Assembly: GCA_016182235.1 (NCBI GenBank) | Contig: JACOXT010000003.1 | Coordinates: forward strand, 194,209-258,208 | Origin: Candidatus Levyibacteriota bacterium | GTDB lineage: Bacteria; Patescibacteriota; Microgenomatia; Levybacterales; UBA12049 | DNA length: 64,000 bases | Direction: 5' to 3' | Notes under the pieces: generated by a model | The model's database searches: none | Told to the model about the DNA's origin: nothing | The model's input: only the letters and a program-made list of their open reading frames with translations | Part shown: piece by piece, positions 21,320 through 25,883 of the stretch | Layout: the number at the start of each line of letters is the position of its first letter | How positions within the stretch are numbered: the stretch's first letter is position 1 | Made by a program: the position numbers and the translations under genes

Positions 21320-21382
21320 ACTAGGATTACTATATTTCTAAAATCATTACATTACTTTATAGTATAATCTGTGGTTAGAAGA

Positions 21383-22399
21383 ATGAAATATAATTTGGTG
21401 GTTTGTGGGGGGACGTTTGATCATTTTCATAAAGGGCATGAAGAATTTTTAAGATTTTCGCTCTCTCATGGAAATAATCTTATTATTGGTTTAACAAGCG
21501 ATGAATACGTTAGAAAGTCAAAAGTCAAAGATCAAAAGTCAAAACTTATAGAATTATATGAAGAGAGAAAAATTTCTCTCTTAAACTTCTTAAAACAGGA
21601 AAGGATTCTAGATAGGGTAAAAATAGTAAAAATAGAGGATGTTTTTGGACCAACGCTTGATAAAAGTTTACAAATAGATGCAATTGTTGTATCCAAAAAT
21701 ACAGTTCCTGGTGCAGAACTAATCAATTCTAAAAGAAAAGAACTAGGACTTAAAGAAATTGAGGTTCTTATTGCCCCATCGGTTAGGGGAGAGGATGGAA
21801 AGCTTATATCTTCAAGACAAATTAGAGATGGAGAAATCGATACGGATGGAAAAACTTTTATCAATCCAGCATTTCTCAGAAAGCCATTATTTCTTCCTAA
21901 GGACTTGAGGTATGCTCTTAAAAAACCATTTGGAAATTTAATCTATGATCTTTCGAAATATCAGAGCCAATTCAAGCTAGATTTAGTTGCGACAGTTGGA
22001 GATGTAACTACAAAAAAGTTTAATGATTTAAAGATAATACATAAGATTTCCGTTATAGATTTTAATGTTGGAAGAAAAAAAATATTTTCAAAACTGGATG
22101 AATTGGACTTCCCAGACTTAACTTCTAAAAGTATAATATTTAAAATCAAAAATCCTCCTAGTAACATTACGCCTTTGCTCTTTAAAGCTTGCCAGAAGGC
22201 ATGGGGGAAGAATAATGAGCTTATTATTTTAATTGATGGAGAAGAAGATCTAGCGGTTTTGCCACTTGTTTTGACTGCCCCTTTGGGGACAAATATTTTT
22301 TATGGGCAGCCGAATGAAGGAGTTGTAAGGGTTGAAGTTACAGAAGAATGTAAGGGAAGGGCTTACGATTTGGTAAGTAGGTTCAAAGTGTTGTCTTGA
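21383..22399 (+). CDS. fusion of archaeal-type phosphopantetheine adenylyltransferase and DUF359 (GTP-dependent dephospho-CoA kinase-like) domains
   Basis: N-terminal: 'VVCGGTFDHFHKGHEEFL', 'IGLTSDEY', 'IEDVFGP' and 'AIVVSKNTVPGAELIN' (COG1019-type PPAT). C-terminal: 'VATVGDVTTKKF', 'VIDFNVGRKK', 'IDGEEDLAVLPLVL' and 'YGQPNEGVV' (DUF359/COG1909 pattern). The start is ATG 21383 or GTG 21371. Confidence 0.7.
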   Translation: MKYNLVVCGGTFDHFHKGHEEFLRFSLSHGNNLIIGLTSDEYVRKSKVKDQKSKLIELYEERKISLLNFLKQERILDRVKIVKIEDVFGPTLDKSLQIDAIVVSKNTVPGAELINSKRKELGLKEIEVLIAPSVRGEDGKLISSRQIRDGEIDTDGKTFINPAFLRKPLFLPKDLRYALKKPFGNLIYDLSKYQSQFKLDLVATVGDVTTKKFNDLKIIHKISVIDFNVGRKKIFSKLDELDFPDLTSKSIIFKIKNPPSNITPLLFKACQKAWGKNNELIILIDGEEDLAVLPLVLTAPLGTNIFYGQPNEGVVRVEVTEECKGRAYDLVSRFKVLS

Positions 22400-22974: not shown

Positions 22975-23625
22975 TTAGTTAAATAAGGATCTAATTATAG
23001 AAAAAGCATTATTGGCATCTTTATCTTCAAATACAAGAGTAAATTCAGAAATAGTAGAAATAATCTCAATAATATTTACGCCTTCCCAAGCAAGCGACTT
23101 TAAGAAAAAATAAAAGATTCCGGGAGTAAAAGTTGCTTCTGTTGGAAGTCTAATCGTGATTAAGGAAAGGCCGTGAAATTCAGACACTATAGTTTTATCT
23201 TTTAGTCGTTTCTTGATATCTGTATAAAGATTTCTACTTGCAACAATAGTTGTTTCCAACGCCCCTTCAGTCAAAGAAAAAAAATACTCTCTTTTTAATC
23301 CAGATAGCTCTAGTTGATTAGCATATTTATTGATTAAGTTTTTGGAATGATTTATGTTGATGATCATTAAATTTGATCTCATTATCATTTCTGGTGAATC
23401 TTTGAAAATATTTTTATAACTAAAGCTTGGTTTAGGAGTTTCTAGAAGTCGATTTATAGCCATAATAATGGCTGATTTACTCGTTTTTTTAATCAACATC
23501 TCTTCAAGCTCTGGTTTTATATAAAGAGCAAGCGCTGAGATATTAATAATTCCTTTTTCAAGAGCTTCCTGTAAATATCGCGATCGCTTTATAATTTTTT
23601 GTGTACCCTCACTGACGGTAATCAT
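22975..23625 (-). CDS. hypothetical protein with possible C-terminal ACT-like domain
   Basis: 216-aa ORF convergent with greA. The C-terminal 'LITIRLP...GIFYFFLKSLAWEGVNIIEIISTISEFTLVFED' resembles ACT-type repeats. This is a weak call. Confidence 0.4.
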   Translation of the reverse strand: MITVSEGTQKIIKRSRYLQEALEKGIINISALALYIKPELEEMLIKKTSKSAIIMAINRLLETPKPSFSYKNIFKDSPEMIMRSNLMIININHSKNLINKYANQLELSGLKREYFFSLTEGALETTIVASRNLYTDIKKRLKDKTIVSEFHGLSLITIRLPTEATFTPGIFYFFLKSLAWEGVNIIEIISTISEFTLVFEDKDANNAFSIIRSLFN

Positions 23626-23711: not shown

Positions 23712-24908
23712 ATGGATAGCTCTCTTTTCTATAAAAAGCTAGAAAAAATTACAGCATCGGGAATTTCCCCTCGAGTAATACAATCTGGTCAAGGAGCATA
23801 TCTAGTTATTAAAGGCAAAAAACAATTAAATTTTTGCTCCAGTCATTATTTAGGTTTAGCCGTAGATCATAGACTCAAGAAAGCAGCTATAAGTGCTATA
23901 GATAAATATGGAATCGGAACAGGATATCGAACCCTTGCTGGTACACATACTCTTCATTTAGAACTTGAAAAAGCGATTGCTAAATTTAAAAAAACAGAAG
24001 CTGCAGTTGTTCTTTCCAGTGCCTATATGGCTAATTGCGCTGCTATTCAAACAATTTTAGGTAAAGAAGACATTGTTGTTTCTGACGAACTGAATCACGC
24101 TTCAATAATTGACGCTGTGAAGCTTTCGCAAGTCAAAAATAAATTTATTTACAAACATGTTGATACAAAAAGTTTGGAAGATCAGTTAAAACAAGCTTCA
24201 AAATTGGCTTTAACGCCAAAATCAGATGGAGAAAAACCAATTATTTTAATAATAACAGATGGAGTATTTTCTATGGATGGGGATTTGGCGCCACTTCCCG
24301 AAATTGTTAAACTTGCTAAAAAATATAATGCTCTAACTATGGTTGATGATGCTCATGGTGAAGGAGTTTTGGGCAAAGGAGGCAGAGGAATTGTTGATCA
24401 TTTTGGACTTTTAGGACAAGTAGATATTGAAGTTGGAAGTCTTTCAAAAGCATTTTCCGTAACAGGTGGGTTTATTGCAGGAAAGAAAGTATTAATTGAA
24501 TTTTATAATCAAAAAGCAAGACAAAGGCTTTTTTCGATTGCTTTAACAATTCCTGATGCGGCAGCTGCTTTGGAGGCTGTTAATATTCTTCAGAAATCAG
24601 ATACTGTGGTTAAAAAGTTATGGGATAATGTGAATTATTTAAAATCAGAATTTAAGAAATTGGGTTTTGATATTGGGAAAAGTGAAACACCAATTATTCC
24701 AATTATGCTGCATGATGAAAACCTGGCTATTAATTTCAGTACAAAACTTTTTGAACTTGGAGTCTTTGCAACACCAATTAAATTTCCTATGGTTTCTAAA
24801 GGCAAAGCAAGAATTCGTGTGATTCCATCAGCGTCTCATTCAAAAGAAGATTTAGATCTTGGCATAAAAGCATTTGAAAAAATAGGACGAAAGCTGAATG
24901 TGATATAA
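23712..24908 (+). CDS. kbl: glycine C-acetyltransferase (2-amino-3-ketobutyrate CoA ligase)
   Basis: Alpha-oxoamine synthase family: '[10 protein letters not shown]', '[10 protein letters not shown]' and the PLP-lysine block 'GSLSKAF'. Pairing with the threonine dehydrogenase gene favours Kbl over BioF. Confidence 0.8.
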
Positions 24909-24917
24909 TAATTTATT

Positions 24918-25883
24918 ATGGCAGAAATAGAAAATAAAATTCTGGTAACCGGAGCATTCGGACAAATTGGATCAGAATTAGTTCCTGCGCTTCAGCAAAA
25001 ACATGGTAAAGATAATGTCGTTGCAATGGGACACAGGAATATTCCTTCCCGTTTTGATGGAATTCTTGAAAAAGCAGATCCTAGAAATATATCAGATATT
25101 GAAAAAATCATAAAAGATCATAATATACTTACAATTTATCACCTTGTTTCTCTTCTTTCCGTAACAGGAGAAAAAGACCCTGGATTAACTTGGGATATTA
25201 ACATGAATGGTCTTATCAATATTCTTGATCTTGCTGTTAAATATCAGAACAGAGTATTTTGGCCAAGCTCAATAGCGGCATTTGGCCCTACAACTCCGCA
25301 GGACAACACTGCGCAAAAAACAGTTCTGGAGCCAACTACAATGTATGGAGCAACCAAAGTAGCAGGAGAAAACCTGTGCAGATATTATTTTATTACGTAC
25401 GGTTTGGATATAAGATCTATAAGATACCCAGGATTGATTAGCTGGAAAGCAGAACCCGGAGGAGGAACTACGGATTATGCTGTAGCTATTTTTTATGACG
25501 GATTAAGAAAGGGAGAATATAACTGTTTTGTTAGGAAAGATACAGTTTTGCCTATGATGTATATGGATGATGCAATTCGCGGGACAGTTGAGCTTATGGA
25601 TGCTGATTTAGATGTTGCTAAAAGAAGAGAGGCAAGAGATTGGGATAGCTATAATTTAGCCGCAATTAGTTTTCAAGCTCAGGAGCTTGCAGAAGAACTA
25701 AAAAAACACATTCCGAATCTTAAGGTTGAATATAATCCAGATCACAGACAAGCAATTGCTGATTCCTGGCCTAACTCAATTGACGATTCGTTAGCAAGAA
25801 GTGAGTGGGGATGGAAACATGAATTTGATCTTCCCAAGATGACAAAAGTCATGGTTGACAACCTCAGGAAAAATTCGATATAA
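24918..25883 (+). CDS. tdh: L-threonine 3-dehydrogenase, SDR/epimerase-type
   Basis: 'ILVTGAFGQIGSEL', 'YGATKVAGE' (YxxxK) and 'TDYAVAIF' are typical of the short-chain TDH found next to kbl. Confidence 0.8.
   Translation: MAEIENKILVTGAFGQIGSELVPALQQKHGKDNVVAMGHRNIPSRFDGILEKADPRNISDIEKIIKDHNILTIYHLVSLLSVTGEKDPGLTWDINMNGLINILDLAVKYQNRVFWPSSIAAFGPTTPQDNTAQKTVLEPTTMYGATKVAGENLCRYYFITYGLDIRSIRYPGLISWKAEPGGGTTDYAVAIFYDGLRKGEYNCFVRKDTVLPMMYMDDAIRGTVELMDADLDVAKRREARDWDSYNLAAISFQAQELAEELKKHIPNLKVEYNPDHRQAIADSWPNSIDDSLARSEWGWKHEFDLPKMTKVMVDNLRKNSI

Follow-up and report, generated by a model that had tools for sequence, protein, structure and literature searches.

A predicted archaeal-type coenzyme A synthase, joining adenylyltransferase and DUF359 kinase domains, in a Levyibacteriota bacterium

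Introduction

The last two steps of coenzyme A (CoA) synthesis, catalysed by the enzymes PPAT (phosphopantetheine adenylyltransferase) and DPCK (dephospho-CoA kinase), are carried out in bacteria by the products of two separate genes, coaD and coaE. In eukaryotes both activities are combined in a bifunctional PPAT and DPCK, the CoA synthase COASY (PMC6650551; PMC10899607). In the archaeon Thermococcus kodakarensis the second step belongs to TK1697, a GTP-dependent dephospho-CoA kinase (Shimosaka 2019, mBio, PMC6650551). Here we describe a single open reading frame (ORF) of 338 codons plus stop, at positions 21383-22399 on the plus strand of a 64,000-nucleotide stretch of DNA from Candidatus Levyibacteriota bacterium (contig JACOXT010000003.1 of assembly GCA_016182235.1; ‘the window’ in what follows), which is predicted to encode a bifunctional PPAT/dephospho-CoA kinase, that is, an archaeal-type CoA synthase.

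The clue to the archaeal kinase was itself a set of gene fusions, between PPAT and arCOG04076 (DUF359), in uncultured archaea (cited for marine group II/III euryarchaeota; PMC6650551), and a role for the family in CoA synthesis had earlier been predicted from domain fusions (Makarova 2019, PMC6393860). The same work on TK1697 names the enzyme of Pyrococcus abyssi and TK2128 as archaeal PPATs, and reports that the archaeal CoaE homologues TK1334 and TK2192 lack dephospho-CoA kinase activity (PMC6650551). The PSI-BLAST search described there retrieved only archaeal members of arCOG04076, and bacterial members seem not to be discussed in the available text of that paper. A literature search, with most subscription journals outside its coverage, found nothing linking the fusion or DUF359 to the candidate phyla radiation (CPR) or Patescibacteria.

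The archaeal fusions (those of marine group II/III, and those labelled ‘Candidatus Ranarchaeia’, P0405 and P0446) have the same domain order as the protein described here, a length of about 310-380 residues and the same motifs; an alignment with P0405 contains 34 invariant columns, including the HxGH motif of the first domain and the three aspartates of the second that are discussed below. What differs is the host: the protein described here comes from a bacterium in the CPR class to which the Levy-, Gottesman- and Roizmanbacteria belong. COASY resembles the protein in placing the last two steps of the pathway in one polypeptide with PPAT first, and the analogy with it that had been drawn in an earlier reading of the window from its letters alone (the ‘sequence-only reading’) is an apt one. 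The kinase half of COASY, however, is of the P-loop CoaE type, whereas the kinase half here is the non-homologous DUF359 domain; because the two kinase halves are non-homologous, COASY and the PPAT-DUF359 fusions must have arisen independently.

Two enzyme domains in one reading frame

The sequence-only reading had assigned the two halves of the protein to archaeal COG1019-type PPAT and to DUF359/COG1909, quoting eight motifs, all of which are found in the translation: among them are GGTFDHFHKGHEEFL (residues 9-23) and IGLTSDEY (35-42) in the N-terminal half, and VGDVTT (205-210), VIDFNVGRKK (224-233), DGEEDLAVLPLVL (285-297) and YGQPNEGVV (307-315) in the C-terminal half. It had also proposed a hidden Markov model (HMM) search with the CTP_transf_like and DUF359 profiles, and Pfam did match both domains in the same frame, PPAT first and DUF359 second, at a level well beyond chance. 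HMMs built for the two domains give envelopes at 5-164 and 173-342 (numbered along the stop-to-stop frame). Between the two family envelopes lies a short and poorly conserved linker, residues 159-170 (21857-21892, plus strand), with a column conservation of 0.0-0.6 in 29 class-wide sequences. Those 29 sequences were selected by motif, which makes their conservation table partly circular for HxGH and GEED, and the selection left out four of 33 loci (L008, L019, L026 and L034), all four of which are fused according to the HMMs. For this reason, statements about conserved residues rely on a second alignment, of 66 fused proteins that were taken from hit lists regardless of motifs and that have a mean column identity of 37%.

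The N-terminal half (residues 2-158; 21386-21856, plus strand) passes the NCBIfam model for archaeal-type PPAT (NF001985), with 146.3 bits against a cut-off of 104 over residues 2-158, and is matched by Pfam CTP_transf_like (PF01467) over residues 7-149 with an E-value of 3.9e-10. Among solved structures its closest match by sequence is 3do8_A of Archaeoglobus fulgidus (E 2e-15, residues 6-156), which the PDB carries under the name phosphopantetheine adenylyltransferase. HxGH and ISSxxIR are signatures of the nucleotidyltransferase superfamily, and the domain carries both: the first as H16-K-G-H19 (21428-21439, plus strand), in which every one of the 66 fused relatives has H16, G18 and H19, and the second as I142-SSRQIR148 (21806-21826, plus strand), which aligns with ISSTRIK of 3do8 and in which conservation of I147 and R148 reaches at least 90% across the same set. 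Unlike the Archaeoglobus protein, to which it is 29% identical in the Foldseek alignment, the domain shares its polypeptide with the enzyme that follows it in the pathway.

The assignment of this half to archaeal COG1019-type PPAT was thus borne out by the subfamily model, by 3do8 as the best match in both sequence and fold, and by the retained HxGH motif, and activity on 4'-phosphopantetheine is predicted for it. An HxGH domain might in principle belong to some other nucleotidyltransferase, such as an FMN/NMN adenylyltransferase or a cytidylyltransferase, and place the protein in another cofactor pathway: Pfam gives only its generic CTP_transf_like family for the domain, there are weak matches to models for glycerol-3-phosphate cytidylyltransferase, FAD synthetase and nicotinamide mononucleotide adenylyltransferase (NMNAT), and NMNAT and cytidylyltransferases appear among the lower Foldseek ranks. 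We consider this very improbable, given that the PPAT-specific model is passed while the scores with the other nucleotidyltransferase models, 11-44 bits, stay below cut-offs of 127-521 (the exception being the generic TIGR00125, passed at 44.2 with a cut-off of 27.7), that 3do8 is the best solved relative on both counts, that the partner domain belongs to a family of kinases for PPAT's own product, and that the fusion is present in 15 of the 17 sampled genomes of the class that carry CoaBC.

The C-terminal half (residues 171-337; 21893-22393, plus strand) matches Pfam PF04019 (DUF359) over practically the whole profile (positions 1-125 of 126; residues 209-334), with 101.6 bits against a cut-off of 25 and an E-value of 3.1e-29. 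The NCBIfam model for the Thermococcales GTP-dependent dephospho-CoA kinase (NF041125) matches residues 171-337 with an E-value of 2.5e-30, and the closest solved relative by sequence is 8jvc_A (E 6.8e-24, residues 171-336), whose PDB entry is named ‘GTP-dependent dephospho-CoA kinase’. TK1697 (8JVC, 8JVF, 8JVG) is a stand-alone protein of 177 residues from a hyperthermophilic archaeon, whereas here the domain is fused behind a PPAT in a bacterium; the C-terminal 167 residues of the fused protein align with TK1697 from end to end, at 34% identity (Foldseek).

In TK1697 the D48A and D67A mutants grow poorly, and the D125A mutant less so (PMC6650551). When positions are counted along the sequence alignment with 8jvc_A, all three aspartates have counterparts in the fused protein, each of them invariant in 66 of 66 relatives: D207 (22001-22003), which stands in the GD of VGDVTT opposite GD48 of TVGDVVT and is predicted to be catalytic; D226 (22058-22060), the counterpart of Asp67 and also predicted to be catalytic; and D289 (22247-22249), which lies in GEEDL and corresponds to Asp125 (all on the plus strand). 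The full-length profile match, the three retained aspartates and the match to the fold of 8JVC agree with the placement of this half in DUF359/COG1909.

An AlphaFold2 model of the fused protein, built on the alignment of 66 relatives, has a mean predicted local distance difference test score (pLDDT) of 94.3 and a predicted TM-score (pTM) of 0.91, a value that points to the two halves being in a fixed arrangement. Compared by Foldseek with the PDB, it finds the kinase structures 8jvc, 8jvg and 8jvf at the top rank (E 6.7e-18; TMt 0.84-0.89) and Archaeoglobus 3do8 second (TMt 0.79-0.83); structures of bacterial CoaD, with a TMt of about 0.6 and a probability of 1.0, rank below 3do8. Both halves have the look of intact archaeal-type enzymes. 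The CoaD matches also qualify one statement of the sequence-only reading, namely that bacterial CoaD and CoaE are unrelated to the archaeal enzymes: this holds for CoaE, which is non-homologous to DUF359, and does not hold for CoaD, which is an HxGH nucleotidyltransferase like archaeal PPAT.

Other coenzyme A enzymes of the genome

The genome amounts to 809 kb in five contigs and is estimated to be 83.6% complete; homologues named Candidatus Levybacteria put it within the CPR/Patescibacteria. A six-frame search of the whole assembly, fused gene included, gave no match to CoaD (TIGR01510) at E <= 0.001, while the same search gave matches in 13 of 14 control genomes; nor was any CoaE found over cut-off. 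The expectation that canonical coaD and coaE would be missing elsewhere in the genome was therefore sustained, as far as an assembly of this completeness goes, with no CoaD and no credible CoaE detected in it.

The sole CoaE signal is a sub-threshold one, from a 194-residue P-loop protein on the same contig, outside the window (G000:C4, L001:1474-2055, plus strand). It scores 24.2 bits with PF01121 (cut-off 27), over profile positions 2-41 of 180, and 22.8 bits with TIGR00152 (cut-off 65.55). Its best full-length matches are to PRK08356 and to the kinase portion of a model for anti-phage dCTP deaminase, which suggests that it is a nucleotide kinase. The same weak signal recurs in four other fusion-bearing genomes of the class sample, three from the same family and one from the same order.

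This protein is a candidate in an alternative in which the PPAT half alone serves CoA synthesis. The DUF359 half would have drifted to a different role, as another kinase or as a nucleotide-binding domain, and the P-loop kinase or an unrecognised enzyme would take over the final reaction. The recurrence of the CoaE-like signal, and the fact that the DUF359 half scores below the equivalog cut-off of NF041125, speak for such an arrangement. On the other side, the CoaE match is confined to the P-loop and lies under both cut-offs, the full-length matches point to a nucleotide kinase, the archaeal CoaE homologues TK1334 and TK2192 are themselves without the activity (PMC6650551), all three aspartates mutagenised in TK1697 are invariant across the fused family, and the fusion and a true CoaE occur together in none of 201 genomes of the class. 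We regard the alternative as having only a slim chance of being correct.

Upstream in the pathway, a canonical bifunctional CoaBC (TIGR00521, 384 bits against a cut-off of 219.7) is encoded on the minus strand of the same contig, about 80 kb upstream of the fused gene and outside the window (G000:C4:135087-135638; L003:1420-2628). Profile searches of the genome found neither a pantothenate kinase of type I or III nor an archaeal phosphopantothenate synthetase; the profile for the type II kinase (PF03630) matched none of the control genomes and is thus uninformative here.

Distribution across the class

The fusion is no peculiarity of this genome, as the sequence-only reading might have led one to suppose. 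Homologues in a 90%-identity collection number 1179 at E <= 1e-3, and the best 120 all carry PF01467 together with PF04019 in 329-393 residues. A 50%-identity library contains 4288 representatives at E <= 1e-3 and 724 clusters at E <= 1e-30; among the 150 matches listed from it, nearly all are of 304-423 residues and match over most of their length, with one piece of 229 residues. DUF359 was detected in nine of 401 sampled genomes of the phylum; a DUF359 search of the class sample found the fusion in 51 genomes out of 201, each time within an open frame of 314-611 residues, and at all 33 loci fetched from these and one further search both domains lie in one ORF according to the HMMs.

Full-length fusions are found in species-level records named for Levyi-, Roizman- and Gottesmanbacteria, Microgenomates and ‘Patescibacteria group’, and in records of one ‘bacterium’, five ‘uncultured Gammaproteobacteria’ metagenome-assembled genomes (MAGs) and one ‘uncultured archaeon’. 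Stand-alone DUF359 proteins that bear organism names are all archaeal. The description of the gene as a fusion built from archaeal-type parts accordingly stands with respect to its domains, and does not stand with respect to a new assembly, since the architecture had already been published for archaea (PMC6650551); the gene is a new bacterial member of a published fusion type that is common in its class.

The distribution of the other CoA enzymes complements that of the fusion. CoaE is present over cut-off in eight of the 201 class genomes, none of which has the fusion, and in one family (f3) three sampled genomes have CoaE while two different ones have the fusion. CoaBC exceeds its cut-off in 17 of the 201: in 15 of these it accompanies the fusion, in one it accompanies CoaE, and the last, 89% complete, contains neither. 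Conversely, no CoaBC could be found in 36 of the 51 genomes with the fusion. Within the family of the present genome, the fusion is present in five of seven other sampled genomes and CoaBC in none of the seven, so that the present genome stands apart from its sampled relatives in also having CoaBC. The phyletic pattern is the best indirect evidence of function. The counts are given without a statistic because related genomes are not independent.

Some variants of the architecture were seen in the course of these searches. A Roizmanbacteria-type subclade (L044:1422-2981, L049:1512-3017 and L078:1491-3047) has frames of about 500-520 residues with an extra N-terminal HxGH stretch, so that two CTP_transf_like stretches precede DUF359 (with a HIGH_NTase1 match in two of the three); these may represent a three-domain variant. 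The longest frame, of 611 residues (L013:763-2595, genome G496), combines PPAT and DUF359 with a Glucosamine_iso/6-phosphogluconolactonase-like domain at residues 387-600, and represents a triple fusion or else two genes that share a frame without a stop. Archaeal DUF359 has other fusion partners as well, an AAA_18/NMP-kinase-like P-loop domain and, in Altarchaeaceae, DUF371 (L113:1476-2528; P0351, P0360, P0415, P0353 and P0347); where a nucleotide kinase is joined to a GTP-dependent one, the arrangement could be a hint that it supplies the donor. The three CoaE genes of family f3 (G083, G501 and G557) lie in open frames of 376-380 residues, about twice the length of CoaE, and may be fused to another domain.

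A predicted bifunctional enzyme for the last two steps

Taken together, these observations lead us to conclude, with a probability of roughly 85%, that the protein is a working archaeal-type PPAT/dephospho-CoA kinase that replaces both CoaD and CoaE. The proposal that one bacterial protein serves the last two steps of CoA synthesis is backed by family models, by matches of both sequence and fold to PDB entries, by conserved catalytic residues and by the lack of any CoaD or credible CoaE. In the mechanism that we envisage, 4'-phosphopantetheine would be supplied by CoaBC, and the N-terminal HxGH domain would convert it, with ATP, to dephospho-CoA. The C-terminal DUF359 domain, which is predicted to be a Rossmann-like kinase related to thiamine pyrophosphokinase rather than to P-loop kinases, would then phosphorylate the 3'-OH of dephospho-CoA to give CoA, with GTP as the probable donor by analogy with TK1697, so that the fused enzyme would stand in for bacterial CoaD and CoaE. 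We infer both activities, the preference for GTP and any channelling between the domains; observed are the identity of each domain, its fold and its intact active-site residues, together with the absence of detectable CoaD and CoaE and the phyletic pattern.

Several points weigh against this conclusion. The use of GTP is known for one archaeal enzyme only, TK1697 (PMC6650551). The C-terminal half reaches 105.2 bits with NF041125, short of the 300-bit cut-off of that model, and by NCBI's rule the kinase half is therefore a member of the family and not an equivalog; a score of this kind is expected for a distant bacterial member, and it limits the claim of identical function by rule, not that of family membership. 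The related genomes that enter the phyletic counts are not independent of one another, and the absence of CoaD and CoaE means ‘not found’ in a genome that is 83.6% complete. Finally, the annotated CoA pathway of this genome is left without an entry step, since neither a pantothenate kinase of type I or III nor an archaeal phosphopantothenate synthetase was found.

Origin of the fusion

A quick maximum-likelihood tree of 110 kinase domains places the CPR-type fusions in two groups, and the archaea-labelled fusions (Ranarchaeia and LFW-144_1) elsewhere, on a backbone without support. Supported inner branches number 20 of 105 in this tree and 12 of 77 in a tree of PPAT domains, and with backbones mostly unsupported neither tree identified a donor lineage. 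When all 57 CPR-type rows were forced into a single clade, the likelihood was better than that of the free quick tree, and the arrangement was not rejected (p-AU 0.874, approximately unbiased test), which is compatible with a single old origin of the fusion in the class.

Both domains are otherwise typical of archaea, and one close relative (P0106) carries the label ‘Pacearchaeota’, which raises the question whether the fusion is an artefact of assembly or binning, created by a contaminating archaeal contig or by a sequencing error that merged two genes. We judge the likelihood of either to be negligible. The gene lies on a contig of the 600-kb class among bacterial genes (GreA, an ABC solute-binding protein and an M20 peptidase), G+C content is even across the window (0.32-0.41), the same single ORF recurs in 51 of the 201 class genomes, with both domains in one ORF at 33 of 33 fetched loci, and the ‘Pacearchaeota’ protein nests inside Levybacteria sequences.

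That protein takes its nested position in the kinase tree, and is probably misbinned. The five MAGs labelled ‘uncultured Gammaproteobacteria bacterium’ (L037, L039, L042, L051 and L054) have a fusion of the CPR type that nests among those of Levy- and Gottesmanbacteria. Their labels look wrong, and are the less to be trusted because the assemblies of four of them (L037, L042, L051 and L054) measure only 0.8-1.7 Mb. A stand-alone archaeal-type PPAT was also met in a record of ‘Candidatus Limnocylindrales bacterium’ (Chloroflexota; L070:2001-2486), where it groups with PPATs of Bathyarchaeota (SH-aLRT 95); the contig may be archaeal and misbinned, or else the gene marks a further transfer between domains of life.

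Implications for coenzyme A metabolism

A wider interpretation, which we offer tentatively and place somewhat on the doubtful side, is that in most of the class the fusion is the only enzyme of the CoA pathway and salvages scavenged 4'-phosphopantetheine, that the present genome has in addition a new entry enzyme or imports a phosphorylated precursor, and that the whole goes back to one early event of exchange with archaea. That the enzyme salvages 4'-phosphopantetheine in two steps is suggested by the 36 of 51 fusion-bearing genomes that lack a detected CoaBC; a hidden entry enzyme or an imported precursor, by the presence here of CoaBC without a recognisable pantothenate kinase or phosphopantothenate synthetase; and a single early exchange, rather than repeated transfers, by the fact that one CPR clade was not rejected. 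Were this interpretation correct, ultra-small bacteria would obtain 4'-phosphopantetheine from the cells around them, whether hosts or neighbours, and complete CoA by means of an archaeal-type two-step enzyme.

The finding mainly improves annotation and metabolic reconstruction, and leaves knowledge of the enzyme families themselves unchanged. The public names listed for the homologues, such as ‘pantetheine-phosphate adenylyltransferase’ and ‘cytidyltransferase-like protein’, are unspecific or cover the first half only, apart from one JGI name that has both halves (P0440). Because the kinase half is missed in these names, automated reconstructions would score such CPR bacteria as being without the last step of CoA synthesis; with the kinase half recognised, about a quarter of the sampled class is predicted to be able to finish CoA. 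The result also frames the question of which CoA precursor such CPR episymbionts take from their surroundings, and the fused gene offers a clonable enzyme with which to ask whether the GTP-dependent chemistry of archaea works in bacteria.

Gene start, upstream signals and neighbouring genes

The frame of the fused gene is open without stops to 22399 from either of two possible starts, an ATG at 21383 and a GTG at 21371, four codons 5' of it. The ATG is the likelier start because relatives share the N-terminus ‘MKYNLVVCGG...’, and the choice of it in the sequence-only reading is favoured on this ground. A perfect TATAAT hexamer, missed by a consensus scan, ends 14 nucleotides 5' of the ATG (window 21363-21382), and no clear Shine-Dalgarno sequence lies between the two; so short a distance, with no clear Shine-Dalgarno sequence within it, suggests that the leader is very short or absent. 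Apart from this hexamer, scans for promoters (eight promoter-like sites, against 5.6 expected) and for terminators (one site, on the wrong strand) gave nothing usable.

The neighbours of the fused gene encode an ATP-binding cassette (ABC) solute-binding protein, a GNAT acetyltransferase, an M20 deacylase/peptidase, GreA, a protein of 216 residues without a family, an acyl-CoA-dependent acyltransferase of the BioF/Kbl family and a protein of the NAD-dependent epimerase family. The 216-residue ORF (window 22975-23625, minus strand) lies between greA and the Kbl-like gene and has no Pfam or NCBIfam match. The neighbourhood is not a CoA operon, yet putative users of CoA, namely the GNAT acetyltransferase and the BioF/Kbl-family acyltransferase, adjoin. 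The latter, a predicted pyridoxal phosphate-dependent enzyme that scores 482 bits with TIGR01825 (below the cut-off of 535.4 bits), is followed directly by the NAD-dependent epimerase-family protein (window 23712-25883, plus strand), and the two resemble what we take to be a pair of glycine C-acetyltransferase and threonine dehydrogenase, which would presumably be CoA-consuming.

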